Shown piece after piece: positions 5,401 through 62,740 of a stretch of 64,000 bases of DNA (position 1 is the first letter of the stretch; every line of letters starts with the position of its first letter). The translations under genes were made by a program, and so were the position numbers. The notes beneath the pieces were generated by a model. That model saw nothing but the letters and a program-made list of their open reading frames with translations, had not been told where the DNA came from and searched no databases. Location: contig NC_059437.1 of assembly GCF_021028975.2 (NCBI RefSeq), forward strand, positions 44,702,001-44,766,000, written 5' to 3'. The DNA is from Sphaerodactylus townsendi. Taxonomy: Eukaryota.

Positions 5401-8400
5401 TGCCTCCCCTTTACAGCAGCTAACTTGCTTCTACTTTTGCCACCCATTTGTGTTCTCTACTGGTATTTCTTTTATCAGTTAGAGGATTTGGACTTCCATT
5501 TTCTAAAGAGACATCTTTTTTTTCCTAATAATTTCCTCAAAGCGTCCCTTGGTTAAACCATGGGTGGCTTTCTTTTGGACTGGGCGCTGCCTTTTCCTAA
5601 CCTACGGAACCACATTTCCAGCTGAGCTTTGTGACTGTGTTTTTCACAAATTAACCTCAAAAAAAAAAAAAAAGCATCTTGGACATTTTTGACTCTCTTC
5701 CAGATTTTCCCTTTCAGCTTCCTACACTATCTCCCCTCATCTTTGCAGAGAATTTCCCTTTCTGAAGGCAAATGTAAACACTACATTAGTAGTTGTCACT
5801 TGTTCGCAGATGCAGAGATATTTTAGAATTCTGACAGCTTGTTGTAGTGGCGCTGTTCCCTCATCCCGGCTCAACAACACTGACTTCCCCCACAGCACTC
5901 AGGTCCCTGGGTCCCACATAGAATTAGATCCTAGGGATCACATCTCCCCTGGTTGGTTCTACAACCATCTGCTCCTAAGCCACAGTCATTTAGCATATCC
6001 AGGATATGTTTCTCTCCCTTACCCTATGACTCCTAGTAACATGCATTTTTTTCCGGAGTTTTGAGTATGGGGATAGTTAAAATCTTAAAAGCCCATTACC
6101 CGCGACATTTTTTTTTACTTTTTGCTTGGCCTCTCTAATTTCTTTTTCCATCTCAGAATCCTCTTGTGCGCTTTGGTCAGGGGGACGATAATATATTCCT
6201 AATGTTAAACTATGCTTCACCCCTGGTATTGATATCCACAGTGCTTCTGTAGGGGAATCAGCTCCCCCTGCATTGTCTATTTTATGTGACACTATGCTCT
6301 CTTTGATGTAGAGGGCCACTCCACCCCCAATACGCCCTGTCCTATCCTTCCTGTAGAGCCTGTAACCTGGGATAACAGCATCCCACTGGTTCTCCTCATT
6401 CCACCATGTCTCTGTGATGCCCACTATATCAATGTCCTCCTTCAAAACTCTGTACTCCAGCTCCCCCATTTTAGGTCGAATGCTTCTACTTACATTCCTC
6501 AGATCCTCAAAGGATGCAATTTAAAAACTCCCGTTCCCAACACCGTGGGCAGTGTTCTCTGTTTTTGCTGACAAACTGCCTCAACAGTTTGTGTTCAACC
6601 ATACCTAAATGATTGTCCATCTGACAAAGCATCTTGGGTATATTCTCATTCTTTTCATCATCTTCTTTGATGACAGGAGCCATATTCCAAATCACAACCT
6701 TCCCAGAATCCTGCCCTGAGAATAAAGGAAAATCAACGTATCGTTTGTTTACAAAGCACTGGCTTTTTCATAGAGAACATGTGCAGTGTGGAGAAAAGAC
6801 AATCATCCTTGACGTTAACTTGCTGACATCCGACTTAACGCTTTATTCGGATTTATTTGGCACGTTCACCTTCGGGCTCCGGCTAACATTATAACAAAAG
6901 ACAAACAAATATTGCAGTTCAGCTCACTGTCCTACATGCAGCAGAATCTTGCTGGAAAGAACCAGGCTTAGAAACTATGGGCCAGATGGCAAATGAAATC
7001 AAAACTTTTATCGTATGGATATGTTTCAACTGGTCAGTGGGAAAAAAAGGGAGAGGGAATCATTTCAGAAAGAAAAGTGGGCAAGGAGCCTTCCAGATAA
7101 GATCAACAAGTGGTCACTTTCCAGAAAAAGGAATAACAGCTAACATAAATGCATCAAGGAGGAAATAGAGGTTAGGGAACGTTGTTTTAAACGGTAAGAA
7201 CCACAACATTTATTAGACTGCCAAGATGCCCACTTTTGCAGAAGGGCAGGTCTGCTGGTAGGGAGGGCTCATATAAGATAGGGCAGGGGCCTGCAACCTG
7301 CGGCTCTCCAGATCAGTGTTTACCAACCTTTTTGATGTCACGGTACCCTTGACCTCACTCTTCATATTTCACGGTGCCCCTGTCATCCCCCCACCTTCCC
7401 CTCCCAGTGCCCCTGCTTGCACCACCCCCACCTTCCCCTCCCAGGGTGAAGGGAAGAACTGGGGGGGGGGGAGGAAGTGGCTGCTGACCTTGTGGCAGGC
7501 CCTGCCCCGAGCCAGCTCCATGCCCTTGCTGGCACCAGCAGGAGACACCACAAAAGTGAGGGGGGGGGGTTAGCATTGCCATGGTGCCCCTGGGACATGC
7601 TCACGGTACCCCAGGGTACCACGGAACCCTGGTTGAAAATCACTGTTCCAGATGTTCATGGACTACAAATCCCATCAGCCCCTGCCAGCATGGCCAACTG
7701 GAGAGCCGCAGGCTGCAGACCCTTGAGATAGGGAGTCTCAGAGATGCCTGGCTGTTCTACTTCTGTTGGTCTCATCCCCTCCTCCCACCACAATCACAGG
7801 GTTTAGTTACAGGCAGCATAATGTAAAACTTGTGGCATAAATAAAAACTGTATACATCGCCATGTTTATTGGGAAAGGCAGGTTAGAAATATTTTAAGTA
7901 AGCATATTAAATGATGTGAAGGAACAAGAATCACAATAAGACTATGTGAGCAAGTGGACAGCTGCCACATGTGCTGGTATGACGGGGACCCCCGTTGGCA
8001 GATGGGCTAGGTCCTTGGTGGCAAATCTATGGCACTCCAGATGTTCATGGACTACAATTCCCATCAGCCCCTGCCAACATGGCCAATTGTAGTTCATGAA
8101 CATCTGGAGTGCCATAGGTTCACCATCACTGGGCTAGGTCATGGTGTCAGCCACACCTTCAGGGCCTTGGCCCACTAATGTGCCACTGCTACCACAGCTC
8201 AAGGACAGACAGGAGGCATCCGAGCCAATGGGAGCAAAACAGAAAACTCACTTGTGCCAAATAACATGATGTATCCTGAGAGGTTTTAAGAGGAAAATAG
8301 AGTGTAAGATTCTTCTCAAAAAGTATCTTCAGACAAACTACACATTAACGCTATTTAATTAAAAGAAAGGTCAACAGGCAAGCGAATTCGCTTTTGATAT

Positions 8401-17400: not shown

Positions 17401-19281
17401 CTTTTTTTCTCTCTGGCCTTCCTGCATTTTGATAGCCGACGTCTTACACAGCCTATTTACCTTAATAAGATAAACTCGGGGCTGGTTTCACTTTTGCAGC
17501 TCAGGCCAAGAAAACCTGTATGGATCTTCACATTCAGTTAACCTCTTCAGCAAAATGAACTGTCAACGCTCTTTACAGGACCAACTCCTTAGATTTGAAA
17601 AAGACATACATTGTAATCCTACACAAAGTTACTCCAGTCTAACTTCTCTGATTTCATTCAACTGCACCACGGATGCTAGAACTGCAAAGGCACTTCCTAG
17701 TAAATTACTCCTGTAACTATACCACCCTAGCATAGCGGGGTGGGGAGTACTTATTCACAGGTATCCATGTTCATGTGCCAGCCTAAAGGGTGATGCTAGC
17801 ATTGCAGAGATAGGGAGCCCTTCATATTGAGAAACTGTGTTTCCACTTTGGGTAACACTCCTATCCACAAATCATAACTTAGAATTATATTTCACTTGTT
17901 TACTTAATCTGTACACTAACAGGCACAGTTCTCAAGTCTTTCTGGGTGCTTCATCCTATGTCCAAAAAGACCTATCCACTTTACTTTTCAGCTAGGGATA
18001 CATGTGAAGTTCCTCTGGGGTGAGAAAAAGGCATTCTGCATATGCCCAGAGACTCATTTTCCCTACGCTCTGGAAAACACAGTCTTCCTCTAACCACTTT
18101 CATGCCACTGTGACTAACACATTATTCCAGACTTTAACTAATGCACACTTATTTAACATGTAAGATAATACATACCAGAACTTTTGCCTGGGTACCCCAA
18201 CTGAAATCCACACCTGCTTCCTTTAACAGTGCATATGTAATGACCTGCACCTACTCACTGAGGGAAAGGCACTCTGCCCATCATCAGCGGTCCCAGAGCC
18301 TGAAACACTGGAATATTAAATCCTATCTCACTTACCACGGTGTGTATTCATGCACTTCAGTAACGAAGAAAAAGTACTTTGTCCATGCTTAGAGGTTCAA
18401 AGACCTACATCCCTAAAGTATTGGAAAACACAGTCCCTTTCTGGCCCATTCTGCACCATGTGGTTCCCTGGCTATGGAAGGCAACATAAACTGAACATGC
18501 TTTGAGGTCCCGGAATATGCATCACTGAAGTATCAGAAAACACAGCCCTCTTACCACCCTGTTATCTTACAGTGCACATGCAGTAATTCCATAGTCTGGA
18601 GAGAAAAGAATGTACTCTGCACATACTCAGAGACTCTCTGAAAGAAACACTCTGCACACAGTTGAAGACCCAGGAGCTGCACCACAAAAGCACACTGTCC
18701 TCCTTCAGTCCCATTCTCCTCTGGCCTGGGTGGGGTGGGGAAAGTTAAGTGCGCACTCTGCATGTGCTCACCAGTCCTCTCCATCTTGGCTCCCAAAAAG
18801 TGGATTATCCACATGCTTTGGTCCCAGGATCTGCATCCCTAGAGCACAGCCTTCTTCTTGTAGCATCCAAGCTGCAGTCTCATATGCCCAGACGGCACTC
18901 TGTGCATGCTCAGAGAGCCGCTTTGAGTCAAGTGCACCGCCCAGCCTCTCGCAATTGTGGTTGACCTAGGTCGGCTTCAGGAGATTCATTTTTCTCCTCC
19001 TCATCTTGGGACCAGCAGAGGAAAGGCACTCTGTGCATGCTCAGAAAGTCCCTTTGGGGCAAGCACACATCCCAGCCACTCAGCTGAGGGAAAGCACTCT
19101 GTGCATGCTCAGAAAGCCCCTTTGGATCAAACGCACAGCCCAGCCACTCACCATTGTGGTTGACCCAGGTCGGTCCAGCTAAGGGAAGGCTCTCTGTGCA
19201 TGCTCAGAGAGCCCCTTTGGGTCAACACACAGCCAACCACTCACCATTGTGGTTGACCCAGGTCGGCTTCAGGAGCTTCAT
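2412..19281 (-). CDS. HIRA: Histone chaperone HIRA, coding exons 1-4 (partial; continues beyond left edge). Exons: 19245-19281, 8566-8628, 6605-6715, 2412-2502
   Basis: Spliced translation MKLLKPTWVNHNG/KPIFSVDIHPDGTKFATGGQG/QDSGKVVIWNMAPVIKEDDEKNENIPKMLCQMDNHLA/CVNCVRWSNNGLYLASGGDDKLIMIWTRAT matches the HIRA WD40 N-terminus. Junctions are GT-AG; exon sizes 37/63/111/91 nt keep frame. Confidence 0.97.
3269..6490 (-). mobile_element. 5'-truncated CR1 LINE (ORF2 region) in HIRA intron 3; same subfamily as 56460-60610
   Basis: 3' UTR, tail and ORF2 C-terminus nearly identical to the other copy; APE motif GITETWWNEENQWD at 6077-6469. Confidence 0.94.
7284..7725. mobile_element. hAT MITE with a second hAT MITE (7314-7645) nested inside
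   Basis: Outer TSD AGATAGGG; inner TIRs CAGTGTTTACCAACC...GGTTGAAAATCACTG with TSD (C/T)TCCAGAT. Confidence 0.85.
10690..11090 (-). mobile_element. Older CR1-type RT fragment (partly duplicated at 11489-11689)
   Basis: ORF 10659-10988 with IKFADDTK...RIQNDL..LE.W...KCKMLHLG-like motifs. Confidence 0.8.
11097..11488. mobile_element. hAT MITE, CAGAGGTGGGATCC family, copy 1
   Basis: TIRs CAGAGGTGGGATCC...GGATTCCACCACTG; homologous to 11690-12058 and 37734-38115. Confidence 0.85.
11690..12058. mobile_element. hAT MITE, CAGAGGTGGGATCC family, copy 2
   Basis: Flanked by 8-bp TSD CCTCTCAT. Confidence 0.85.
13238..13430 (+). mobile_element. 5S rRNA-derived SINE with RTE-like tail (related copies ~51690-51870, ~61960-62100, inverted ~36720-36900)
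   Basis: GATCTC...CTCAGAAGCTAAG...CCTGGTT.GTATTTGGATGGGAGACC resembles the 5S internal control region; followed by GAGGAAGGCAATGGCAAACCACC. Confidence 0.7.
15320..15461. repeat. 71-bp tandem duplication (2 copies, 1 mismatch)
   Basis: CCGCCATCTTCCAAAAGAGCC...CTTTCCCAGTA at 15320-15390 and 15391-15461. Confidence 0.9.
18020..19281. repeat. Degenerate tandem array in HIRA intron 1 (motif GCACTCTGTGCATGCTCAGA) including partial copies of exon 1
   Basis: Motif recurs near 18031, 18269, 18613, 18752, 18895, 19026, 19094 and 19189; units become better conserved toward exon 1. Confidence 0.8.
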
Positions 19282-19780
19282 CTTCCTCCTCCTCCGCCTC
19301 CTCTTCTTCCTCCTCCCTTTCCTCCTCTCGTCCGCCACCGCCGCCGCCGCCGCCGCCGCCACCCGGCTCCCTGGGCCTCCGTGCTGGGAGCGGCAGCGGG
19401 TCGGGGCAGGCGGCGGCTGGGACTGCTGCGCCGCTCGGGCTGGCCTCGGAGCCGGCGCCCCGACGCCCCGCACTACCGCCGCTCCTCCGCCCCGCGCTCT
19501 CCGCCCCTCGGGCCGGCCGCTGCCCGTTCCTGCCGCCGCTGCTGCTCCACCGGCTGCTCACGGCAGCTCCATCCCCCGAGCCCGCCGCCGCCGCCGCCCC
19601 TTCGCCCACCTCCCGGCCACATCCCCCGCTCCCGGCGGCTCCCCGGCAACGCCGGAAGTCAGCGGAGGGCAACGACCTAAGCGGCTCGGCGGGAAACAGG
19701 GACGACGCCCAAAGCGGGACTTGGTGTTTTGCCAGACGCCTCTCCGCCAGCCTGGGGCAGCTCTCGGAGTCGTGACTTCG
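19282..19780 (-). promoter_or_regulatory. HIRA CpG-island promoter / 5' UTR
   Basis: Very CpG-rich; (GCC)n tracts; ETS-type CCGGAAGT at 19652-19659. Confidence 0.75.
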
Positions 19781-22636
19781 AGACCCTGGGGTGCAAATCC
19801 CCCACAAGCCACGCAGTTGAGCATCAGCATGACTCGGGGGTTAAGAGGGCCAGGATAGGACTGGGGTCCAAACCACCCCATAAGCAAAGCAAAGCTTGTG
19901 TGATACTGAGAAGAAGGAGAAGAGTTTATACCCCACTTTCCTCTCCTGTAAGGAGTCACAAGGTGGCTTACAAGCTCCTTTCCCCTCCTCTCCGCACAGC
20001 AGACACCTTGTGAGGTAGGTGGGGCTGAGAGAGTTCTGAGAGAACTGTGACAAGGTTACCCAGCAGGAATGGAGGAGTGTGGAAACACATTTGGTTCACC
20101 AGATTAGCCTCTATCGCTTATGTGGAGAAGTGGGGAATCAAACTCAATTCACCAGATAAGAGTCCACCACTCATGTGAATCCACCTGCTCTTAACCACTA
20201 CACCACTCTGGATTTCTTGGTTAACCCACTCCAATAGGGTGGTTGAGAAGAAGGTAAATTGGAGAAGCTGAAAGCCAAGCGCAATCTGTGCTCTTTACTG
20301 CCCTAAACCTGACCTCTGCTTATCACCAAATAAGATCATATTTCCAAGTCAACTTCAGTTGGTAATTGATAAAGCAGGGGGGTCTGATTCTGGCTCTCCA
20401 GATGTTTATGGACTACTATTCCCATCAGCCCCTGCCCACTCTCCCCTCAGTACAGACAGATGCCTTGTACTTTCCTTCCTCAGCAAAGTCTCTGCTATGG
20501 ATTAGTGACTCTTCCGCTAATTAGTGGCATAATAGGGATATATGAGCACTTTTCTGCCTTCAGAGCGCTGCCATGCACACCTTTTCCGGCTGTAAGGGTA
20601 TATGATTGTGATTTATTAGCACTTTTCAGCATTCAGAATATTGCCATGCATCTATCTTATATCCGTAAGGATTGTTTACTATTTATGAAGGAGGACAGCA
20701 ACCCTGTAAGGTAGGCCTGCCTTCTGCCCCAGCAGGAGGCAAGGAAAAGTGGAATGTCAGGCTGTCACAAGGTGGGCCACCATGTTGAAAGGCTTTTTAA
20801 AAGGAAACGAGATAGATTCACAGAAGATAAGGCCCTCAGGAGTTGTTATTGCATTGGCAAGTTCTGAAGCAGATGGGCCATAGACTGAGGGTAGGCAGAA
20901 GGAATTTTTTCACTCGGTGAAGAATTAATTAAATGGTGAGATTCTCTTAATTAAATGGTGAGGAGCAGCAGTGGCGTAGGAGGTTAAGAGCAGGTGCACT
21001 CTGATCTGGAGGGTTTGATTCCCAGCTCTGCCGCTTTAGTTGTGGAGGCTTATCTGGGGAATTCAGATTAGCCTGTGCACTCCCACACACACCAGCTGGG
21101 TGACCTTGGGCTAGTCACGGTTCTTTGGAGCTCTCTCAGCCCCACCCACCTCACAGGGTGTTTGTTGTGAGGGGGAAAGGGCAAGGAGATTGTAAGCCCC
21201 TTTGAGTCTCCTACAGGAGAGAAAGGGGGGATATAAATCCAAACTCCTCTTCTTCTACTACTAGTGGATGATCACTAGCATAGGTTGCTTTAAAAGGAGG
21301 TTAGACAGATTTTTGAAAGAGAGGTCCATCAAAGGTCATGCTAACTAAAGGGACCTCTCTATACAGAGGCAATACACACTTCTGAATCCCAGAAGAGAAA
21401 TACAATTTCAGGGAAAGGCTGTGGCATGTATGTCCTGTTTGTTGGCTCTCAGGAGCAACTGGTTTGCCACTTTGTGAAACAGGATGCTGGACAAGGTAGC
21501 CCACTGTTGCTGTTATGTTCTTGTCTAGGTATATTTCTGTCATCTAATGCATATTGTATGAACCCATTCTACCACTTCAGTAATAACAACACAACACTAG
21601 TATAGTATGTAACAAAGGACCAGAGCATCCCACAAAATGTTTTTGTTATCTTTGCCACAAGCAAAGCTGGCCAGTATTATCTCTCTACTAGTATAGGTAA
21701 ATGTACTGCAGAGATGGTAAACAAATAAATGAAATTGAGTTGTTAGTTGCAATCAGTGGCTGTAACCCCACAAATCATAATGTGGGGTCATTTTGGCAAA
21801 ATCTGATTAAATGCTTTAAAGTAAGCAGTTGAGTCAGGTGGATCTGTAAAAGTACAAATAAAATGAAGGTGGAGAAAACGTTAAGCTGCTTCGGGTTTCC
21901 GCTGGAGAGAAAAGCAAAGTAGTGTAAATAAAATAAACTGTTATAAAGCAGAGCATTGCATGATCTGGATCATGCCTCTGCAGGTCCACAAACAAGGATA
22001 AGCCCCCATCTCATGGAAGCTGACTTTTTCAATTCTAAAGTTGCCATATTTATATGTTTTTCAAAATGTGATCTCATATTCACCTCATCTGCTAATTGGG
22101 ATTCACAACTGCAGCTAGTTTATTTTCAGTGTTCCTTGAGAACAAAAACATCTTACAAGATTATTTTAACGATCATATTCTAGGCAGCCTGTGTCTCTGC
22201 AGATAGTCTTAGTTTGTTTTTACTTTTTACTTATGACAGAAATATATCCATTTTAATAACTGAACCTTTGACAAGCATGTTCTTATTGATTGGCCATTAG
22301 CTGATAAGCTGAATCTCTGTATCTGCTGATTTGGTTCAGGCCTCTCTTTGGATTCTGCCAACTCCTTTCCCTGAACTTTTAAGGAAACATAACCATAAGT
22401 AGAAGTGTGTTTGAAGGATTGCTTTGGGTGGGCATATTAGACACAGAAAAAAGCCCACTGTCAATGAAGTCCTCAGCTCTACAAGATTTTGTCCCAACAC
22501 TTCATGCTTGATTTTAATTTATAGAAGTCACCCATATGTGAAAACCTTATTTAAATTTATGTGGAAAGTCCTTTTCCAGTGTGATGAAATTGTCCTTTAC
22601 ACATTATTTTATTATTATATACATGTTCCAGAAACT

Positions 22637-23416: not shown

Positions 23417-26400
23417 ATGTTAGCCCAGGCAGCGGTCTCGGGGGCCTTGAGTCGCCTTCGCAGCAATGCAAGAGCCGCCTTGTGTAGGTAAGTGCCGCCA
23501 CCCAGCCACCCACCCACCCACGTCTACTTCGTTCTGTCAGTAGAAACGTATTTGCAGAGAAACATTTTAACGTTTTTGTTTTAAACGAAGCATATAAACC
23601 ATTCTTTGTAGTTGCTGGATCAGACCAGCAACGTGTTTCCAAATTTCAACAGTAAATAGCGCGATAATTCTAGGGAGGCTGACTTTCCACACATCCTTAG
23701 GAAAAAGCCATTATGGTGGTCACATTTTTATCCTGTCCTCCTTCAAAGACGATATATGAGAGCCAGCGTGGTGTAGTGGTGAAGAGCAGGTGGATTCTAA
23801 GCTGGAGAACTGGGTTTGATTCCCAACTCCTCCACCTGAGTGGCAGACTCTTATTTAGTGAACCAGATTTGTGTCCCCACTCCTACACATGAAGCCTGCT
23901 GGGTGACCTTGGGCTAGTCACAGTTCTTTGGAACTCTGTCAGCTCCAGGTGTCTGCTGTGGGGAGAGGAAGGGGAAGGAGCTTGTAAGCCACCTTGAGTC
24001 TCCTTACAGGAGAGAAAGGTGGGACATAAATCCAAACTCTTCTTCTTTTTCTTCTAATAAGCAGGGCTAGAAAACGATGGCCATCCTTTTGTTGTTGGAT
24101 TCTGATCTTCAGAGGTAGGCTACTTCTGAACATGGAAGTGCCTTTTCCAGCCATCGTAACTGCTGCTGATATTCTGTTGTTGCATTTGATAGAAAGTTCT
24201 CTAGCTCACCAAAGCTAACAGTGCATTAAATCAGTCAGCCTTTAAAGTACTGCTACCCTGTTTTTTTTCATGTGACAGCAAAGTAGCAGTCAGGATGGCC
24301 TCCATGTATCTAGCTGTTTATAAAGACAGTTACAATTTGCTTTGTTGTAGCAGGAAAAATTACATTTACCCCCTAACTATATATGCGAGATTTTGAAGGT
24401 TACTTTCGAAAACTTTAGTATGGCGAATAATCTCAGAAAGAAACAATGAAAAAAATGCATTACTTGATGGATTTGTGAAACTTGAATCTTGACAGCAGCC
24501 TTTTCTTCTAAATCTAGTTCTCAGAAGCTCTTCAGATGTTCAGCGATACTGTAATTCCCCATCAGTCGCTTCGTCAGCATGGCCAATTCGCTGGTAGGGG
24601 CCGATGGAAATTGAAATGATGGGAATTGTAGTTCCTGAACATCTGGAGAGCCGCAGGTTCCCTACCCCTGTTCTAAATTGACTGATCTCAGATTTTTTCC
24701 CCCAATTATCCCTAGCTCCTGGTTAACCTGTTATGGTCAAGGTCGAGAGAACCACTGGCAATCTTCACTTCTAGGACTCAGGGCATCTCTACCCATGAGG
24801 TAAAATGTAGTTCATATTCTTTAGACTGCTTTTGCTAAATTGGGGGAAACCTATATCAATATTTACTCTTAGAGAATAAAATGAAGGACTTCCAGTGATT
24901 TGGCTGCTTTCAGATACTTTCTAAGTATGCAAAGTGCTTTCTAATTCACACCTCATGTAGCCTTGCCAAGGACTGTAGTAGTGCACTGCTTCACTCCAGC
25001 AGTGCCGTGAGAGAACGTTGGGGACGCTTAACGGACCTGGGCGGGCCTTGCCGGGTCGCGAGATCGCACTCCCTTTACCTCCTCATCCCCTAATGAGTCA
25101 CGGGTCATGAACTGTCTAAGGCTCAATTCCACCGGGCTTAGGGACAATGGTCTGCTCCCCCAGGTGGAGATTGAAGCTCTTTAGACGCCAGACGCTTCCT
25201 CCAAGACGTGAAATGCCGATGTGAGGATCAGCGCATCACATGATGATTCTCCGACTCTCCTGCTCTCCGGAACTCCCCAGTCCTCCCTCCTCCTACACGC
25301 CTCTAAATAGAGTAACAATAAAAGGTGCCATAGGAATCGGCAGACGGAGATTCGCTAGGGAACATCGACTCCGTCTTCCGCCCGCTAAGCTGGCGCATCT
25401 CCACCAGATGTTATCTCCGCCACTCCGCTCGTCTTCGTTCTTACAGCTGACCGCTGCGGGTTTAATTACGCTGGTGCTTCTAAACCTCGGGAATCCTCGA
25501 ACCTCCACTCCTGCTCACCGTCGCCTGGGGAAGCGGGTCCGCGATACCGGTCCGGCTGGATCGTGGCGATCCAGGGGACCACCGTTTCGGCATCGCCTGT
25601 CCTCTGGATCGGCTATCCAGAGACACGCTGGCCCTAGGACACTCTCTCGTCCGGACGGAACACCGGTGAGTATGGGAGCTTGCAAAAGCAGGGCTTATGA
25701 CAAGCACGCTGGATCGAACTGAAAGCTGCTTAACGCAATGCTGCAGGGTCCCCGGTCAGAAGAGAAGCGGAGCTGCGCGAAATTGGTTGAGGAGAGTGAA
25801 GCTCAGTGTCCATGGTACCGAGAGGGGGGGACATTGAATCTTAAGGACTGGGAAAACATCGGGCGCACTTCGCGACAGAGCCTCGCTACCGATGTCGCCA
25901 TGCTACTGACGGAGACAATGTTTTGTCGCCATCAGCCTGCAGACCTACGGCTCCCTTGCTGTAGGTCACTCCTTCGACCTTTCACCTTCAATTTCAACCC
26001 CGGAATTTTCTCTATCCACTAAATTGGACGCTTCGTCCTCCTTCTGCCCCCCTCGCTCCTTCACCCATTTCAAACTCTCCCGCTGCTCAGCCGCCCCCTC
26101 CTCCTTGCTCCGCCTTTTCCTTTCTCCGAAGCCACTGCACTCCGCCACGCCACGTAATGGCGCTGGTTTCAGAACTCTCGCGAGAACGTATTAGCCACGA
26201 CATCTGCAGAAGAAAGAAACCCTGACGGAAGACGATGCCGAGAGTTCTGTGCATTGTGCCCCATCCACTTCACAGATAACTCGAGGAGGATGGCATAGTT
26301 CGGCTGGTTGTCGAAAATCACCTCTGAGCTATAATATCCTTACCGAAATTCAGCAATGCGGACGTAGGAGTCACTTCAGCCCCTACGTGAGAGGCATGCT

Positions 26401-29400
26401 GGAAGCCATCGCGAAGGAACCAAACCTAATGGTTCCAGATGACTGAAAAACACACCTTCGCGATGCTCCTGGAGCCCCGCGCACTTGTGGTTCCTGGGAA
26501 AGTGGAGTTCCGGCCAGCAATGCTTCAACAGAGCAGCCACCTCTGGCGGTAGCGCCTACAACCGCCAGCTTCAGCTTTACGGCTTCGGCGCTTTTGCCAA
26601 TCCCAACGATCAGATTGTACTGCTCTGAGGCCACCCTTTACTGTCGCTTCTGAGTGCGCCTATAAGGCTTTGTCAAAGTCCCCAATGCCGGCCAGCCAAC
26701 CCAGAGTTTCTCCTCCATCCGCAAAACCCCAAGAGCCCTATGCTGAATTTGTGAACAGGCTCCAGGAAGCGCTCAAGAGGCAGGTGGTAGATAGCGAGGA
26801 GGCCTCAAAAACGAGCTCCTCATGCGCCAGCAAAAGAGAGAACGCTTCCACGGAGTGCCGCAGGGCAATCACGGGCCTGGGCAAAATCCTGAACTGGCCG
26901 ACATGCTTAAGGCTTGCCAGGACATCGGATCCTCCTTCCACCAAGCTGGCCTCCTCGCCGCAGCACTTCCTCCTCGGGCGTGGGAGGCAGCCCCAGGATG
27001 ACTGCTTTAACTGCGGCAGACCCTCGACACTTCCGGCGAGTGTAGGCAGCCCGGCGCGGGGGCCTACAACCCCCGATGGAGGAGGGTCCTCCCCTCAGGA
27101 GGAGAAGCGCCACCTAAAACCCGTGCCCACGCTTGCCAGAAGGGCTTCCATTGAGAAACGACTGCCCGTCGGGAAACTCCCCGCCCGGGCGCCTGCCCCA
27201 GCCCAGGACCAAGGAGGAGAGTACTTCAGAGCAGACCCAAACGCCTAGGCCCCTGCCGAAACCACCCCTCTCAGGGCATCTCGCTCGCATGCACTCCAGC
27301 CCATCTCCTTTAAGTTCCCCCACGCAGGTTCTTGTCGCCCTAACTCCAGTATGACGCAGCCCATCCCTACCGGGACAATTAGCTGGGTCGTGCTGCCAAA
27401 GGCCTCTGCCGCTGAACAGGGACTGTTCCCACCATCGCCCCCGAGTGCTCGACTCCACGCACTCCAAGGACCCATCCACCTCCAGGTCTGGACAAACATC
27501 CCACAGGAGCTGCTCCGCCGGAGCCAGCTGCGCTCAGCTGGATTTTCTTGCCCCATGCGCCGCCCGCCGTCGAACCCCATAAATAGCGCTAATGCTTGGT
27601 GCCCCAGCAGCCAATAACATGGCGCAGGCCTACACTTTCACCGCCGCAGCGTGGAGACGCTCATCGGGAGCTTCCCGCCCGGCTATCTGGAGCTCGCTTA
27701 TAGAAGGATGTAAGTTCAAGGGCCTGGTGGACACCGGCGCTGATAAAGTTACCGCTATCAGAGCAGCCGAGTGGCCCGACCAGTGGCTTCAACACCGAGG
27801 CTTTGCCCGCGACATCTGTGGCATGAGAGACAAACCGCTGACGGTGAGCATCCCGGCCGGCCACACGGTCAACAGCCCAGGACTCGAGCGGCAGCTCTTC
27901 AGTCCGGGCCCCCATCGCTTCTAGACATCCATGTCAATCTCTGGGGAAGAGACCTCATGAGTCAGGTTAAAACCACTCTTGGTCTGGGATGGGTAAAGCC
28001 GCCACGGATCATTGATTCTCCAATCGTTGCCTTCCGGTTGCTCTCTTAATTTCCACACAGGAAATCTGTTTCCCTCTCCTCTCCCCTCTTTTCCTTCTGT
28101 TTTTTCGACCAGTAGCGGAGGGCCAATTGGCTGACTGGCCCTCCTGGATTAAAAATCTGGGCCCGGCCTCTGATATCAAGAGCACTGTCAGGACAGGCCC
28201 CAGTTTAAAAAAGGCTGCCGCCATTATGCGCCTAATACCCAAACCCGTTTGGGTGATGGCTGCCCAGCGCCTGGCAACTTTATCAGTACCACATTAAAGG
28301 CCAGGCGCTCAGCCGAACCGTACCTCCTTTAAGGAGCCGGCTCCCCGGCGGGCGGCAATTCCCTCAAGATAATTCGACTACAAAATTCTAGCAGCACCAT
28401 CCAGCTTCCTGCATTAGCCACCAAGGTCACGGTAAGTGCAACTCCCTTTGCAAAGAAACCCCCCTTCCTTTCTCTTCCTTTGTGTGTGCGAGGAATTTGC
28501 CTCTAACGCCTCGATTGCTTCATTCCCCGGATGCACCTTATCCCCAAAAGGTGCTTCCAAAGCCCCCTTTTGTGTTGCTGATTAAGCATGCATACCCACA
28601 ATCCCCCCAGGACCTCGCTTTTTCTGTTCCCTTCCTTCTCGAGGCTCGACCTCGCCTTTGACGCATCTCTGATGACGCTTCATGAAGCCAATTCCTCAAC
28701 CAGGGTCAGCCACCTCCTGCCCTCCCCTGTCAAAACAACTAAAGAAAGAGGAGTGTAGGCTGCCCTCCCAGGTGAGGGTTGCACTAAAAGCAACCTTCAC
28801 AGGCTGCAAAACGCCTTCTTCCTTCCCATATTAAATCCAAGCAAAACACTAACTCGATCCCAATCTCCCGCCATCCGCTTCTAGAATCTGAGCCTGGCGG
28901 ACCCGCCCCCCCCCCGCAACCTGGGGAAAGGGGTGTGTGTTTCAGTCCTCTCTTCCTACAGGTTCCCGGACTCCGATTCGCCATAACAGGCCAACCCATG
29001 GAATGGCGCCGCAGGAGGAAACCAACCCCATCCCCCGGGAGATGGAACGCATCTCTCTAGAGGATCCCCGCCCAGCGATCCCAGCAGGAACGCCCGCCGC
29101 CAACCAAAGACCCGGAATGACCTGGGGAGACGCCAAGGCGATCACTCAGCCAGGCTCCTTAGCGCCGCTGGCGCCAGCAAGACCACCCCGGTGACACCCG
29201 AGAACCCTCTGTGCCGCCTCTCTTTGCGATCATCACCACCAACTCAGCGACTCACTCATCCTTTGCCTGCTCTGGCTGCCTCCCGCCGGCGGCATGCATC
29301 GTGGCCACCCCTGACGAAGCCACCAGACCAACATCTGGGAGCAGTTTGCTGCCGCCAAGCCAACGCCTCTTCATCTTTTCTGCCTGGCCAGTACTCTGTG

Positions 29401-32400
29401 GGAGTCGGGAGCCTGCTGAGCCTTCCGCCTGCTCCCCCCGTCTGCAAAGCACCCGGAGACTTCCTAGCAGAGTCTGGGCTGAGCCCCTTCATGAATGCCT
29501 TCATCCATCAGATATTCTCTATGAGCCGCCGACTGGGGACCCGTCACCCAAACCCGCTGGCGCTCTCTCCCTTGTCACCAAGACTGTCGCTAACCACTGT
29601 GCTCTTAACCGACTCTGCGCTTCTCGCATCACCGGGCGCAGCCGAACGAGGAACCGACTCCGGGCCCATTCTCTCCGTCGGCTCGGCCAGTTGGAACTGC
29701 ACACACATGGAGGACATTCCCCCCCCGTGTTCGAAACATCCTGCTCCCTCAGGCTGGGAGCCCTTGACCTGCGGGAGAGGACGCTTAACTACATCCCCGC
29801 CTCACTCCCTGCTTCGGAACTCTCTTGCTGCCTCAGCTCGCCTCACCATTGTCCTCTACCCCTGTGGCTCCACCCCGGGAGCCCGACGCCGCCGCCGCCG
29901 CTCCGCCCTGCCTCTCGGACCCTCCCACGCCGGGAGCTGGCTGCGTCGCCCTCTCCCAAGCGGAGTTCGCCTCCCTCGCAACTTCCCTAGTGGGAGTCCC
30001 CGGACTCCGCCTCCCTACAATGCTAAGACTGATAATGGCCGGCTGGCCTGTGCCCCTCATGGGTCCATCAACTTCTGCCTCCACCGCCTGGATGCCCTGG
30101 CCTCCGCAGCAGCAGGTAGTCCTTCACAAGCCCGTTTGCACCCTAGACAATCGTGCACGCTTATTGATTATCATTTGTTGTTGCTTGCATCACCAAGGTT
30201 GTGAGAATGTACATAATATGTGTTGTTTTAATCTTTTCTGATAATTCCCCAGTTGATCCACATGAAAGTGCTGCGGAGCTGCAAGAAGTTGTATCTAATC
30301 TGAAGTGCATGATGTTTTTGCCCCATTGGTGGTCAGCCCTTCTGGAGCTGGCTGCCGGGAGGATGGTTGGAGTGCTATTGTACAGCTCTGCATTGGTTTA
30401 ATTGTGGCAGGCGTCTTTGTTATCGGATCTTTGTTTCGCTCAATGCGTGTCTAATACAATTGCTCTGTAACGTGGTGTAAGAAACCCCTCGGTGATTTCC
30501 CTTACCCCGCGAACCAAGTTCTAATGTTGCACAAGCAGCTTGGTCAATCTTGACCAAACGGCGTGGAGGAGACAAGCGCCCCTCTAAATCGCCTTTAGCT
30601 GCTTCGCCCCCCCGCTTTCTAAAATGTGTGAGGAGATATGTAGTAGTGCATCTGCCGCACTCCAGCAGTGCCGTAGTAGAACGTTGGGACGCCAACGGAC
30701 TCCGCGGCGTCTTTGCCGGTCGTGATCGCGACTTACCCCATCCCCCCTCATCCCCCCATGAGCCGCACGGGTCATGAACTGTCTGCCTCAATCACCGGGC
30801 GCAGGGACAAATGGTCTTTTGCCTCCCAGGTGAGGATTAGGCTCAGACGCCAGACAGCTCCTCTCCTCAAGACGTGAAGCCAGATGAGATCATGCATCAC
30901 ATGATGATCTCTCCGACCTCCCGCTCTCCCGGAACTCCCCCCAGTCCTCCCTCCTACACGCCCCCAATAGAGTAACAATAAAAGGTGCCAGGAACCGGCA
31001 GACGGGAGGATTCGGGGCGAGGAACACGGGACCTCCTCGGCCCCCCCCGGGCCGCTGCTGGCGACATCTCCACCAGATGTTATCTCCTCGGGCTGCCTCT
31101 GCTCTCAGTTTCTTACGCTGACCGCGTGGGTCGACTACAAAGGACCTTGTGAGAGAGATTAGCTGGAGAAAATGTGACTGTTACCCTCTAAAGTTATGGT
31201 CGAGTAAAGGTTTGAATTTGCATCTTTACGTTTAAGCTCCGTGCTTCACACTGTCTGGGGGGAAAGTCATTATCATGGTCAGATTTTTATCCTGTCCTCC
31301 TTCTAAGACAATATATGGTTTCCCCTCCCTACTTTATTCTCATTGCAATCCTTCAAAATACGTTAGGTGGAAAAAGGGAGACTATCCTAAGGTTATCTAA
31401 TAGCTTTCAATACTGAGAAGGGCTAGGAATGCAGCAATCTGAGGCTGGCACTCTAACCTTGACGATGTGTAACTGATCCAGTAAACAATAAAAATTCAGA
31501 CATTTGGGTTCCAATTTTTCTGCTTTTGGAATGATCACAGGAAGAATTCCGAAGAACTAACATCCATTGACTAATGGTGCCAGTATTTATTTTAATGTGC
31601 ATGGCTTGTCTTTTGATTCATTTTGTCCATAACCCAGCCAACAAAATGTTCCTTTTTGCCAGAGGGCGTTTTTATAAAGGGAAGAGGTTTGTTCTTTTCA
31701 TGTTAATGAAAAATGGTGGGCAGCTTCATATTGCCCTATTTATTGTATCTTTTTAAAATGTACCCTTAGCATTGTTTTCTCATTTTTGTAATCTTGTTTT
31801 ATTGTTGTATGACCTCTTTTGTTTATTACTTTTTTTTAAAAAATGTAATCTGACTTGAGTTTTGCTGAGAAAGGCATATTACAAAGGAACAATAAAATGA
31901 AGATGAAGTGTTGTCATATTGATGTGTATCTGAATGCTGAGGTGGAGTTTTGAATGGTTTTATTCTCCTTCAGAGCAGAACCAAGGAAAAAAAAGAAAGT
32001 GGATCCCAGAAGAGAACAAGCTGCAAAGGAGCGGTTGAAAAAGAAGTTAAAAAAATTGGAAAGAGCCCCACAGGAGCTGATCCCTATTGAAGACTTTATT
32101 ACACCGTACAGATACATGGATGAAACAAGGTAAGGATCTACCGAGGACAAGAGTTCAGATGAGATGCTGGGAATCTGTTCTTGCGTGTTTCCCAGATCAG
32201 ACAGAAGTCCTGCCCCTGCCCTCTCAAGGAGATCCGTTTTAGTGTATGCTGTTCAGAACTTCGTTCTATGGAAATGCTCCTTTGGGGAATGGGGACCTGC
32301 TCCTTTGGGGAATGCTCCCCTTTAAGTATATGGGGACCTGTTTCTATGTTGTTATCCCAGAATAATCACATCAGAGCTTTAGATATGATGGAGGAGCAGG

Positions 32401-34254
32401 TCACAGATTAAACTGCACTAAATCGGATTCAACAAGATCTGCATTTCCATATCAATACGGGGCAAATTGGGAGGAAAAAACAGCCGTGGAAAGAACCCTA
32501 TTCCCTTGAGAGAGGCGGGTGGTGGTGGTGGTGGGAGATAGGAAGGAGAAGGCCCATCCCCAGTGGGGAACAGGCTTACAGGAGCTGGTTCCCTGGAAGT
32601 GGGAGCTGCTGGCTTGTAGTGATGGAAGCTCCTGTCCTTATCATGCGGCTGCCAGCTTATGGCCAAGTGCTTTCAAGCTGTTGACCCATCGGGAGTTACC
32701 CCTGTGACCTTTAATGCCCATCCACCCTAGGCCATAACAAGCAGGGTTGTTACCTTTGTATTCTGACAACTGCAAACAGACACCAAGTCACACAGTAATA
32801 TTTGCTGAACCACATTGAGGCAGGGTTTACTACACCAGAAAAACAATCTTGTGATAACTGCTGAATTCCCATTATGCAAAAAAAAAGGTCTTGGATATTT
32901 AGGTACAGTTGTCAAGCAGCGTATGTTCTTCAACTCGTAAGGAACTACAAGATGCTGAATGCTCTGTTTACTTCAGGTTGCAGTCCTATGCACGCTTAAC
33001 CTTGAATCATCATAATTAATTTAGTCAAATGTACTGTCGAAGGAATGTGTGTAGGATCAAAATACCAGACTACTATTTTACATAACACCATGATGAACTC
33101 AGAGCTCTGACGTTACATGCCTCCCCCTTCCTTTCCTGAGTGGGTGGGCCACGACCAGATGATGGGTCTGCTTCTCCTTCCTCTCCTCACCACACTGAGC
33201 TTCAGAGATTGTTCCATTGACCTGAGCCAGGAACACGGCCCACAGCTGGCTAACTATATAATCACCACATCTCCTAAGACCCAAATCACATGTGCACCAG
33301 AAAGCGTAGGAAGATTGGAGTGTTTGTCTTGTTTAATGTTTGTCCATAGTGTTTGTCTATATCCATCTTTCCTCTTCAGCCTACAATCTTTTTTCCTTAT
33401 TCTCAAAACAACACTGTGAGGTAGGTTAGGCTGAAAGAGGGTGATTGGCTGAAGGTCACCTAGCAAGCTTCCATGACAGAATTGGGATTTGAGCTCTGGT
33501 CTTCTGGATCCTAGCCCAAGATTCTAACTACTATACCACTGATTGTATGGCAGCTTTTCTGCTTCCATGGCAGAGTGAGGATTTGTATCTGGGTTTCCCA
33601 GAGGCTAGTTTGACACTCTAACCCAGGGGTGGCCAACCTATGGTGCTCCAATTGGCCATGCTGACAGGGGCTGATGGGAATTGTAGTCTATTAACATCTG
33701 GAGCACCATAGGTTGCCACCCCCACTCTAACCGCTACACCATGCAGGCTCTCAGTAAAAGGATCTCAGGCCGCACATGTTGGGAAAAGACCTTCCTCTGC
33801 CAAAGATCCTGCGCAGCCACAAGTTCAGAGTAGGAAATACTGCGAAGTCAACTGCATAGGTTCAAAATTGGTAGTTCAGGAGCATGTTTTGTAAAAGCTG
33901 TCGTCTTAGAACACCCTGTTGCTTTCCCCCCTCCTGTCTGTCAGGGTACGAGTCACCGCCCCTTTGTCCTTCGAGGAGAGCGAAAGACGAGCCATTCTGA
34001 TAAAGAAGTGGGCCCAGTACAAGCATCAGCAGCACAGGGCAGAGATGGAAACTATCAGGTCCCTGATGGAAGCCCAGGAACAGGCACTGAAAGAGCTGCG
34101 TCTTGAATCGGAGGAACTGTATCAGGCGGCGATCTGCCGAGACAACAACCTGTTTCCTTTCGAGAGGCAGGAGCCTCTGCATACACCCCCGCTGCCAAAT
34201 TATGAGGCTCCTGAAGGGAAATGCAATGACATCACCAGAGTGTATACACAGTGA
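23417..34254 (+). CDS. MRPL40: Mitochondrial ribosomal protein mL40, complete, 206 aa. Exons: 23417-23487, 24716-24799, 31974-32129, 33945-34254
   Basis: [23 protein letters not shown] (presequence-like) / [28 protein letters not shown] / [44 protein letters not shown] / ...[14 protein letters not shown]...[28 protein letters not shown] junctions, 621 nt in total, syntenic next to HIRA. Confidence 0.95.
23758..24054 (+). mobile_element. tRNA-derived squamate SINE (Squam3-like). Further copies at ~12310-12590(+), 14080-14330(-), 19908-20211(-), 20961-21256(+), 36326-36604(-), 61631-61913(-), 63393-63666(-)
   Basis: Head GAGAGCCAGCGTGGTGTAGTGG with A/B-box-like motifs (GGGTTTGATTCC); shared body; (TTC)n tail. 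Confidence 0.8.
24974..25470 (+). repeat. ERV 5' LTR (3' boundary approximate)
   Basis: Colinear with 30639-31139; AATAAA at 25317-25322; followed by TGGTG... PBS. Confidence 0.9.
25472..25503 (+). other. Primer binding site, degenerate tRNA-Phe type
   Basis: TGGTGCTTCTAAACCTCGGGAATCCTCGAACC resembles the tRNA-Phe complement TGGTGCCGAAACCCGGGATCGAACC with small indels. Confidence 0.6.
25672..27248 (+). pseudogene. gag: ERV gag (MA-CA-NC), frameshifted as assembled
   Basis: MG start; matrix motif [19 protein letters not shown]; capsid [12 protein letters not shown] and [21 protein letters not shown]; [11 protein letters not shown]; zinc knuckle CFNCGR; GGGAAAC slippery site at 27171-27177. 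Confidence 0.88.
27171..27990 (+). pseudogene. pro: ERV pro (dUTPase-like segment plus aspartic protease), frameshifted as assembled
   Basis: [18 protein letters not shown]...GPIHLQVWT (dUTPase-like); [15 protein letters not shown]...WPDQW; [11 protein letters not shown]. Confidence 0.85.
28860..28995 (+). pseudogene. Remnant of integrase C-terminal domain, containing the env splice acceptor (AG at 28960-28961)
   Basis: RHPLL...GPAP...WGKGCVF...[14 protein letters not shown] resembles the class II IN end (DPxxxxWxGPxPxxxWGRG...WxPxRxxRP). Confidence 0.6.
29003..30480 (+). pseudogene. env: ERV env (long leader, short SU, TM), frameshifted as assembled
   Basis: Leader [11 protein letters not shown]...VTPEN...LFAIITTNS; polybasic cleavage RRRRRR near 29884-29901; ISD-like LDNRA..IDY.LLL and [18 protein letters not shown] (CX6CC); hydrophobic segment near 30360-30480. 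Confidence 0.85.
30639..31139 (+). repeat. ERV 3' LTR (501 bp)
   Basis: TGTAGTAGTG...GACTACA termini; preceded by a degenerate purine-rich tract; AATAAA at 30977-30982. Confidence 0.92.
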
Positions 34255-37275: not shown

Positions 37276-39387
37276 TCATTTTGGTTTGCCTTCATCAAGA
37301 GGCATGTACCAGTCCACTGGAGGGCTTTTCCTTAAGTTCCACACTGGAGCATGCTTCTCTTTTGCCAAAGTCCGCTCTTTTTCACTCTTACAAAGAGAGT
37401 CCTGCAAGAAAGAACACAATGCTGCAAAAATCACTTCCGCTATGGCTGCAAAGCAAAGACGGCTTTGCCTGCCTTTTCATCCGCCCACCTCTAGACTTGA
37501 TGAGGCAGCCTGTATTTCTGATAGACCACATTGGTGACTGGGCTCCAAAAGGCACCCTTTAACCCTGTCCAGATTTGCACAGGGACTGTCAAAAAACAAT
37601 ATTGTCCATATCAAGGTTATACATACAATGGATTAGAACATCATAATTCAGACAAATGGCCTCTGTAATAGATTTGTGTGCCATCCATCAGCTTGACTGT
37701 GTTTGTGCAGTGTGGCAATTTTATGTGGCCCATCCAGAGGTGGGATCCAGCAGGTTCTCACAGGTTCCCGAGAGTAGGTTACTAATTATTTCTGTGTGCC
37801 GAGAGGGGGTTACTAATTGGTGATTTTGCCATGTGATTTTTGCCTTAGTCACGCCCCTCCTCTCAGCAGTAGCGCGCAGAACTTGAAGCAGTCTAGCAGG
37901 AGGTGCGTGGCAGCCTGCGCCTGCGTGCATTCGTTTCCCACCCAAGGACCGGCGCAGCGCCTGCGTCCTTGCCACAGCCCTGCCCAGGAATGCCCCACCC
38001 CGGAATGCCCGGCCACGCCCCCGTCGTGCCCCACCCAGCCCCATTGGCGCTATGCCACAATTTCAATCCCACCACCATGAGAACCTGTTACTAAAATTTT
38101 TGGATCCCACCACTGGGCCCATCGCTAAAGTAAATATATCCTCCCCAATTCTGAGCATTACAAATGGCTGTGAACTCCCACCTGTACAAATCAATTCCCA
38201 GCCAGTGGTTCTACAGGGGTTACATAACTTCTAGATATAAAGAAAAGGGCTATTCCACTGCATGGTGATGCTCGATTAGTCACTCTACATACCTTTGCTA
38301 CTGAACTTTTTGTTTTCTCCCACTCTGTGCAGTTCTCATAGTCCTTTTTCCACTGCCTGCAAGAAGGGGCTTCCCCATAAGTATAGTAGTGATGGAAAAG
38401 GTTTCGGATGCTCCGACAGTGTTTCCATTCAGACCAGTAGTCATCACATGCTCGAGGAGGCTGCCAAACACAAGAACGTGTACACTCACACAGAGGCGCG
38501 TATAGGAAAAATGTAGCCCAGTGCAAAACCTGAGTTCCCCCCTCCCTGCCCCATATGGCAGGCCGCCTTCCGCCACCACAACCAAACAACTTTTTTGCAC
38601 CAGGTCATCTCTAAGGAGGAGGGGTGAGAGAGGAGATTTTCCACCCTCTACGTGACTAAATGGCTGCAGCCCGAGGACATTTGACCCTGTATTCATGTTT
38701 AAGGAGGCCACTGAAATCACTACAGAAGCTGCATTTTTAACCATGGGCAGGAACACAAAAGATGACCACAAATTACGGTATATGCCAAGTCACAGAAACT
38801 GCATTGGAAGGAACGTGCAACCATCGTGCCAGAGAGGAATTTCGAACTATGGATGGTCATTTTTATTGGTTAGTCCAGATATAACACATGAAGTTCTAGC
38901 TTTCTAATATGTGGAGAGGCCTATTTTGTGTAGGGATTTCTCGCACACTAAAGTGGCCACCTGAGCGGAGTTCACACACGCAAGATGCAAGGATTAAACA
39001 TTAGCGGAACTATTCCTTTGCTGTCCATCCCTCTCCTCTCCTCCATTTTATCCTCACAACCACCCTATGAAGTAGGGGAGGCTGAAAGACCAAGGTCACC
39101 CAATGGGCTTCCATGGCATGAGTGGGGATTCGAACCTGGGACTCCCAGATACTAGTTTGCCACTCTAAACCACTGCCACTGCACCACACTGGCTTTCTTA
39201 ACACAGGTGGGGTTGAACAGGACCGTGCACCCACCACAAAGCATGGCCCTCAGAACCATGCCATGAAACAAGCACACCCTCCACAGCCTTGGAAACGGGA
39301 TCTACCATTAAGTTCCTTTGCAGGGGATTCCTCAGCCACCCCCCACTCATATAAGCCACTTACCCTCCAGGAACCTCCTTCAGCCAT
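37276..39387 (-). CDS. C22orf39: C22orf39 / UPF0545 (PANTS) ortholog, complete, 105 aa. Exons: 39364-39387, 38293-38460, 37276-37401
   Basis: MAEGGSWR / PPRACDDYWSEWKHCRSIRNLFHHYYTYGEAPSCRQWKKDYENCTEWEKTKSSVAK / DSLCKSEKERTLAKEKHAPVWNLRKSPPVDWYMPLDEGKPK*. GT-AG junctions; lies between MRPL40 and UFD1 as in mammals. Confidence 0.93.
37735..38115. mobile_element. hAT MITE, CAGAGGTGGGATCC family, in C22orf39 intron 2
   Basis: Same TIRs; TSD GGCCCATC. A shorter inverted member lies near 39967-40156. Confidence 0.85.

Positions 39388-53897: not shown

Positions 53898-62740
<8,843 letters not shown>

Follow-up and report, generated by a model that had tools for sequence, protein, structure and literature searches.

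How can a provirus without pol spread, and whose polymerase would it use? The question is raised by an endogenous retrovirus (ERV) at 24974..31139 of a 64,000-nucleotide stretch of Sphaerodactylus townsendi DNA (contig NC_059437.1; the whole stretch is called the window here). An earlier note, made from the letters of the window, had proposed a replicating, non-autonomous family that supplies its own structural proteins and borrows Pol from a helper. We found that the pol-less element, type A, is indeed multi-copy with genes under purifying selection, but that the pol-bearing relative sharing its long terminal repeat (LTR), type B, is a complementary defective partner and not an autonomous helper. 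Type A encodes Gag, dUTPase-protease and Env, and type B a fused Gag-reverse transcriptase (RT)-RNase H-integrase; the two gene sets are complementary and each is under selection, the B capsid being less clear. The family is real, multi-copy and under selection and belongs to a probable two-component system, and the explanation that we favour as likely, judging by gene content and mosaic ancestry, is that A and B replicate by complementing each other in shared particles.

Type A is a multi-copy family without pol

The window copy differs from a sibling (L026) by 216 substitutions and 341 gap openings, 228 of them of a single base, and its own two LTRs differ by 46 substitutions and 52 gaps. 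We infer that this is the indel load expected of an unpolished long-read consensus in a repeat, and the broken frames and corrupted primer-binding site (PBS) are probably assembly errors. Because this noise makes the coding state and age of the window copy unreadable, the analysis is based on natural sibling copies from the same genome assembly (1.81 Gb).

Searching with the spacer that lies between protease and env gave 1397 first-look candidates, of which 40 were scored and all 40 matched. The 39 matches other than the window itself, fetched as 38 stretches, were colinear: 35 are type A (two overlap and some are partial) and 3 belong to a variant, C. All 38 share the pol-less structure, so that a one-off deletion or misassembly, which the note had named as its own alternative, is rejected. 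The spacer motif, counted over every generation of elements, occurs at 696 places in the genome, the young protease site at 429 and the exact PBS at 638; these counts are lower bounds and include units on small contigs. An RT core was found in none of 81 fetched spacer-bearing stretches. From the spacer loci for which no neighbouring protease motif was listed, a further 20 were drawn in list order; all 20 lack an RT core, and the LTRs found among them are 78-94% identical to the young LTR, forming a long series of subfamilies. Target-site duplications (TSDs) differ among the chromosomal copies, and the same defective layout is carried by many independent insertions. Of the 21 copies in which both LTRs are whole, seven show no more than one substitution between the pair; identical LTR pairs occur in several A and several B copies.

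The type A layout is LTR-gag-dUTPase/protease-spacer-env-LTR, 5.8 kb in all, with open frames in 11/34 copies for gag, 16/34 for dUTPase-protease and 11/37 for env. In the window, where all genes lie on the + strand, gag (25672..27229) comprises matrix and capsid (MA, CA) and has a frame broken probably by assembly indels. The siblings have two zinc knuckles, and type A Gag matches Gag_p10, Gag_p24 and zf-CCHC_5. The slippery heptamer GGGAAAC (27171..27177) is predicted to direct a gag-to-pro -1 frameshift, and in sibling L024 the pro frame is indeed -1 to gag. The dUTPase (27250..27606) stands N-terminal to the protease (27673..27996, with DTG at 27730 and the pro stop at its end) in this separate -1 frame. 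Gag, heptamer and protease, which the note had reported, are present in the window itself, where Pfam searches of 16 frames matched Gag_p10, Gag_p24_C and RVP; the dUTPase was demonstrated on a sibling (Pfam dUTPase, E 1.6e-11) and mapped onto the window.

The env gene (28983..30622) is broken in the window, and in siblings it is a 532-aa open frame with a long signal peptide, a surface subunit (SU), a basic cleavage site and a transmembrane subunit (TM) with CX6CC, whose best solved relatives are TM chains of avian sarcoma-leukosis virus (E 3e-13). The signal peptide includes a stretch rich in arginine (window 28983-29270, and env of siblings), is common to turtle relatives and has no Pfam match; we take it to resemble betaretroviral Rec/Rem-type leaders.

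Several variants accompany these copies. In variant C (L038, L039, L045, L171, L174, L184, L188) the Gag frame runs on into a decayed dUTPase and a tail of unrelated sequence, after which come spacer and env. Its fused frame is 834-842 aa in L039 and L045, with neither protease nor pol. It made up 4 of 20 sampled spacer loci and looks like a recombinant of a B 5' part with an A 3' part. Unplaced contigs of 10-14 kb (such as L042, L045, L056, L168 and L200) hold head-to-tail units, of both A and B, that share one LTR and may be assembly loops, true tandem arrays or circles. Type A copies L026 and L049 adjoin older relatives.

A structured insert occupies the place of pol

Between the pro stop (27996) and the start of env lie about 990 bp. 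No RT, RNase H or integrase core was found by Pfam among the 16 window frames, and DNA queries from natural pol (RT, connection/RNase H and integrase core) had no match in the window element. The note's reading of this gap is borne out: a hidden pol core, which would have refuted it, was not found by these profile and DNA queries, nor an RT core in the 20 further loci described above. What remains of pol, as had been claimed, is a degenerate integrase 3' tip (28890..28961): the matching stretch of a sibling is 75% identical to the pol end of the full-length relative L099, though the remnant has no Pfam match. It holds the predicted env splice acceptor, with AG at 28960-28961.

The spacer proper (27997..28890) has a core of about 630 nucleotides (nt) that is common to older pol-less subfamilies, which match it at 63-74%, and absent from pol-bearing elements. 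Decayed pol was rejected as its origin, since the core has no blastn or tblastx match to pol-bearing loci. In 14 copies, a pyrimidine tract with AG and a GTRAG donor are kept about 320 nt apart (one aligned row ended before the tract); in the window these sites bound a predicted non-coding cassette exon with conserved hairpins (28113..28431). The enclosed RNA folds far better than its shuffles in two diverged copies (z -6.3 and -5.6). In the hairpins 12 of 41 predicted pairs are changed on both sides, a number reached by 0 of 500 shuffles; since the alignment tested had also supplied the structure, and helix 4 falls where that alignment is poor, the covariation is supportive of an RNA structure rather than proof. 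Rfam gave no match at E<=1 over a whole type A copy, and a conserved protein is not evident in the exon, whose ATGs are not conserved. We read the spacer as a predicted non-coding cassette exon or RNA-export/regulatory element replacing the middle of pol. Fold, covariation and the lack of a pol match all agree with the note's view that the gap was filled by distinct structured sequence and not simply deleted.

Type B carries pol without protease or surface subunit

The note had advised looking for pol-containing relatives with the same LTR, and these exist. An RT-thumb search (150 of 174 candidates scored) gave at least 83 matches and led to type B, whose RT motif has 135 matches in the genome; the first 20 unfetched RT-motif loci in the list were all type B. 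The type shares LTR, PBS, leader and matrix with type A: in eight clean copies the identities are 91-98% for the LTR, 98-100% for the leader and 92-98% for the 5' part of gag (L092 is lower), as against about 81% for the capsid. In L094, which is chromosomal, and in L105 a single frame of 1596 aa encodes MA, CA, one zinc knuckle, a 163-aa linker, RT (YMDD), RNase H and integrase. There is no dUTPase or protease domain match in this frame and no DTG or DSG in the B frames, in which motifs of RT, RNase H and integrase are present. The SU is deleted and the TM is a remnant only; in those B copies for which the search could place the acceptor (L089, L092, L101, L107), it detected no remnant of the env frame. 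The Pol is related to those of beta- and alpharetroviruses (RVT_thumb, IN_DBD_C).

Contigs from two other organisms (runs X4 and X7) bridge the point of fusion. For runs X1 and X5, pieces are listed on either side of it but do not bridge it by 31 letters, and no indel is listed across B pol and linker in the four runs. Summed contig depth was higher over leader and matrix than over pol in 4/4 runs; such depth is no copy number and was not used as evidence. A second pol lineage without protease and SU (L087, L096, L107, L159, L162, L168) has an older-type LTR and a different linker. As the RT tree sets L096 and L107 apart from the main B clade (100/100), the protease-less fusion has a second origin, by a different deletion. 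Among side observations, B copies L090, L093, L097 and L121 lie beside or in tandem repeats of about 64 bp, L096 has an internal inversion, and L191, L193 and L210, whose open frames are long, are unrelated retroelements (their RT is 27-31% identical to that of B).

Might type B be self-sufficient, an intracellular retrotransposon with an unprocessed or host-cleaved Gag-Pol, or with Gag made through unseen RNA processing, on which A depends one way? We consider this distinctly improbable. MA, CA, a zinc knuckle, RT, RNase H and integrase do stand in one frame, and protease has decayed gradually in B lineages. However, the gag-pro slippery site is absent and there is no stop between gag and pol, so that no free Gag would be made by known routes. 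Orthoretroviruses require excess Gag and a viral protease. The type A protease is under strong selection with no Pol of its own to process, although maturation of Gag and Env could also explain this. Published systems point both ways: Env has been lost in intracellular ERVs, as in B, but the analogous fusion of IAP 1-delta-1, an intracisternal A particle (IAP) element, requires proteins in trans (PMC6466679).

Both gene sets are selected and the 5' parts appear to be exchanged

Ratios of nonsynonymous to synonymous substitution (dN/dS) were obtained as pairwise counts between natural copies and are not independent of one another. For type A protease dN/dS is 0-0.13 when 9 young copies are compared with one another and 0.02-0.09 when they are set against 9 older copies without pol. 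The ranges for dUTPase (0-0.15, one value 0.34), SU (0-0.17), TM (0.02-0.15) and, against pol-less copies, capsid (0.02-0.13, one value 0.44) are similarly low. Protease, dUTPase, capsid and Env of type A are under purifying selection. In type B the RT gives 0.04-0.10 in 15 of 16 comparisons, the integrase 0-0.09 (one value of 0.36 in a frameshifted copy) and the capsid 0.11-0.17 in 9 of 11 comparisons within B. The linker, a decayed dUTPase/protease, gives 0.38-1.03 and is about neutral (0.96-1.03) against L089-L091, yet its frame is kept.

Between A and young B the synonymous divergence (dS) is 0-0.03 in matrix and 0.64-0.68 in capsid. Young A, B and C form one intermixed clade in the trees for leader plus matrix (100/100) and LTR (100/100), with the B copies L089-L091 inside the youngest A LTR clade, whereas the capsid tree separates A, two B groups and C.

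A shared LTR, leader and matrix, or the fused frame, could in principle be an assembly or polishing artefact of collapsed repeats, and chromosomal copies are indeed rich in indels and small contigs hold head-to-tail units. This explanation is largely refuted and very improbable. Unpolished B copies show the same matrix-close, capsid-far pattern, which argues against polishing: L127 differs from A by 3.4% substitutions in leader and matrix (with 90 gap columns) versus 15.6% in capsid. Chromosomal copies have distinct TSDs, B subfamilies bear different LTR variants, independent contigs bridge the fusion and selection acts at the level of codons.

A young autonomous helper was not found

We classified 158 stretches, of which 71 carry RT. 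Protease and SU are both lacking in 44 with a young LTR and 19 with an older LTR; 4 have protease with a deleted SU, and 4 have all genes. Neither protease nor SU was thus found in any of the 44 fetched young-LTR RT loci. The four full-length relatives (L099, L129, L133, L147) have stops or frameshifts; their LTRs are of older type, with none found in one of them, and young LTRs are 73-81% identical to the LTRs of the other three. Scanning the whole genome for a protease site with an RT start after it gave 23 matches. All of them were fetched, and none has a young-type LTR: in 17, which are older elements without pol, no more than an RT stub is present, and 6 have an RT core. In L100, L133 and L134 protease reads in frame into RT and the GRD motif is lost, an apparent early stage of the protease-less fusion.

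These results bear on the possibility that an autonomous full-length virus, which is exogenous, polymorphic or missing from the noisy assembly, carries both A and B as passengers, the proteins of A and B helping in cis without being mutually required. We regard it as unlikely, though less so than a self-sufficient B. Full-length relatives occur in the older generation, pattern sensitivity is low in noisy copies, and passengers of this sort are a known pattern in cattle C/D, MusD/ETn, IAP 1-delta-1 and recKoRV (PMC10924933, PMC6466679). On the other hand, the 44 fetched young-LTR RT loci all lack protease and SU, young LTRs share no more than 73-81% identity with those of the full-length copies, and the cattle D type, in the available account, is without intact frames (PMC10924933), whereas A and B keep complementary frames under selection. 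B-like and clean loci were over-represented in the sample, and a helper that is polymorphic or exogenous would not appear in a single haploid assembly. A small number of young autonomous loci may have been missed; a large family of them is unlikely.

Older relatives may also indicate how Pol was once made. In L099 and 11 older copies with RT stubs the RT start lies 304 nt from the protease site, which places pol in the +1 frame. At the pro/pol junction of L099 (3934-4260), and in L130, L135, L136, L141 and L143, pol is in the +1 frame of pro and an ATG overlaps the pro stop. In the six Pol proteins of the database that are closest, a Met likewise opens the sequence, 16-24 residues ahead of the first RT motif, a weak point as gene callers start at Met. 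Perhaps the ancestor expressed Pol as a separate product, through reinitiation or splicing.

Proposed complementation of two defective halves

Two gene layouts, their copy numbers, shared cis regions, the selection pattern and mosaic trees were observed directly; the steps that follow are drawn from the anatomy and from established retroviral biology. Type A RNA would make the bulk of Gag, a -1 frameshifted Gag-dUTPase-protease and, from a spliced RNA, Env. Type B RNA would make the fusion only, which would co-assemble through the near-identical matrix and the conserved capsid, and the A protease would release RT and integrase from it. With leader, PBS and LTR in common, both RNAs would be packaged, primed by tRNA-Phe, copied and integrated. 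Mixed A/B RNA dimers would keep exchanging LTR, leader and matrix, and we propose that the trees are mosaic for this reason. That Env is under selection suggests that the elements spread by infecting further cells and not purely inside a single one.

Several points weigh against this explanation. Complementation is predicted here from the sequences. The B RT gives a dN/dS of 0.24 against L094, and constraint on the B capsid is weak in the two closest comparisons (0.50 and 0.98). The trees were midpoint-rooted and no one-clade test was run, so that the direction of donation is not established. The assembly is noisy, and many clean frames come from small unplaced contigs that are possibly collapsed repeats. 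The exact two-motif pattern catches about 1 in 6 noisy copies (8/20 x 6/14), and the 71 RT-bearing loci, chosen by a B-derived motif or best score in hidden Markov model searches, are not all that exist. Finally, full-length relatives do exist, and the trees place L099, L129 and L133 in among the older defective elements, so that a helper existed in the past.

We consider about as likely as not a stronger form of complementation, in which this enveloped lineage would be obligately bipartite: a Gag-protease-Env genome and a Gag-Pol genome, neither replicating alone, would have co-evolved over successive subfamilies after the full-length ancestor died out, the Pol specialist arising twice. If so, retroviral packaging of two RNAs acts as genome segmentation. 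The usual view of a defective ERV is that it parasitizes an intact helper. In this genome each of the two abundant young types is defective, in a way that complements the other, and their genes are under selection. If the dependence is mutual, this is natural genome segmentation in a retrovirus, recorded in one genome as a graded fossil series: full-length elements, protease decaying in frame, fusion, and pol replaced by a structured insert. A further lesson is that active systems of this kind escape, or are misdated by, ERV screens that depend on pol or require complete genomes.

Relation to known retroviruses

The element is a class II ERV with beta-like gag, pro and pol and an alpharetrovirus-type Env, so that the note's assignment to class II/betaretroviruses stands for the class and those genes and fails for Env; the placement is drawn from type B Pol and type A Gag domains. 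In the genus Betaretrovirus pol is reached by a second -1 frameshift, Env has no CX6CC motif and the primer is tRNA-Lys; for IAP the note names tRNA-Phe. Here pol is in the +1 frame in L099 and the 11 older copies, the type A TM has CX6CC and the PBS is of tRNA-Phe type; Env type, primer and pro-pol frame place the element outside the genus. The betaretroviral dUTPase-protease in a -1 frame and two zinc knuckles are found in type A, and type B has one knuckle. Of the features of a helper-dependent ERV, LTR, PBS and leader shared with a Pol donor are present, and a contemporaneous autonomous helper was not seen (0/44 and 0/23, with limited sensitivity).

Database relatives of Gag include a leopard gecko protein (62%) and a skink protein (57%); Pol is 51-56% identical to proteins including those of turtle and lizard, and Env 40-43% to those of turtle, lizard and snake. 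No close full-length match (over 65%) was found in the database. Gene models in which Env is joined to dUTPase/protease or Gag (turtles) or Pol to Gag (birds) appear to be gene-prediction splices and were not counted as parallels.

Among published systems, chicken EAV-HP is a multi-copy ERV with gag and env and no pol, thought to need a virus in trans, with 10-15 copies per genome and pol-intact proviruses reported (PMC3747184). Type A is likewise multi-copy and pol-less with gag and env. Unlike EAV-HP, it has hundreds of copies, retains dUTPase-protease, carries a structured insert replacing pol and has a protease-less partner. In mouse IAP 1-delta-1 a deletion creates a gag-pol fusion frame, as in type B; that element is non-autonomous, with full-length autonomous IAP as helper and, in the available account, no Env involved (PMC6466679), whereas in B the RT, RNase H and integrase are whole, and it is the apparent partner of B that has no pol. 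Cattle ERVK[2-1-LTR] C/D, MusD/ETn and KoRV/recKoRV share LTRs and flanks around a swapped central segment, and recombination between types is taken as evidence of co-packaging; one partner is autonomous there (PMC10924933). A and B similarly share LTRs and flanks and appear to recombine, but neither young type is complete and both keep selected genes. In the wheat pair RLG_Cereba/RLG_Quinta, and the 'semi-autonomous' Sabrina, a pol-less partner contributes Gag and the relation is described as partly mutualistic (PMC11302176). Type A resembles that partner in that it would supply Gag, but the wheat pair are plant Ty3/gypsy elements without Env, and Cereba is autonomous. Reptile class II ERVs with alpharetrovirus-like envelopes have the Env type in common with A; the source, in its available part, describes envelopes and not split genomes (PMC13568524). 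One-way complementation of ERVs is thus known and, as these sources describe them, each compared pair has an autonomous member, unlike A and B. Neither a two-way enveloped ERV pair nor the A/B lineage was reported in the literature searched, which excluded most subscription journals and the repeat databases Repbase/Dfam.

Boundaries and surroundings of the window copy

The provirus begins with TGTAG at 24974 and ends with CTACA at 31139, between identical AAGGAC duplications (24968..24973 and 31140..31145, unstranded), so that both ends and the exact TSD claimed for it are seen in the window sequence. A 6-bp TSD, a betaretroviral feature, is not constant in the family, however: of 49 copies with both ends, 21 have six bp, 16 five bp and 12 no exact TSD. 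LTR end and PBS are 3 nt apart across the family. The 5' LTR (24974..25470, +; 447 bp in clean siblings) has a corrupted 3' end in the window. The tRNA-Phe PBS (25472..25492, +) recognized by the earlier note is exact in siblings, as an 18-mer complementary to the last 15 nt of a host tRNA-Phe gene plus CCA, and degraded in the window copy. A leader follows (25493..25671, +), in which clean A and B copies agree at 99-100%, with a predicted packaging function and a splice-donor-like G|GTGAGT at 25665/25666 just 5' of the gag ATG. A polypurine tract (30623..30638, +), also degraded in this copy, precedes the 3' LTR (30639..31139, +).

The provirus is flanked by a pair of 71-nt repeats, 82% alike (23688-23758 and 31247-31317), which probably belong to a repeat dispersed through the host genome. 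Host exons with matches to the MRP-L28 and PANTS-like families lie 3-7 kb downstream (33910-34251, +; 38194-38604, -), and a GC-rich island lies at about 19000-20000. Long interspersed nuclear element fragments with RT, endonuclease and GDSL esterase domains, presumably of CR1 type, occupy 3466-6520 and 57043-60168 (-).

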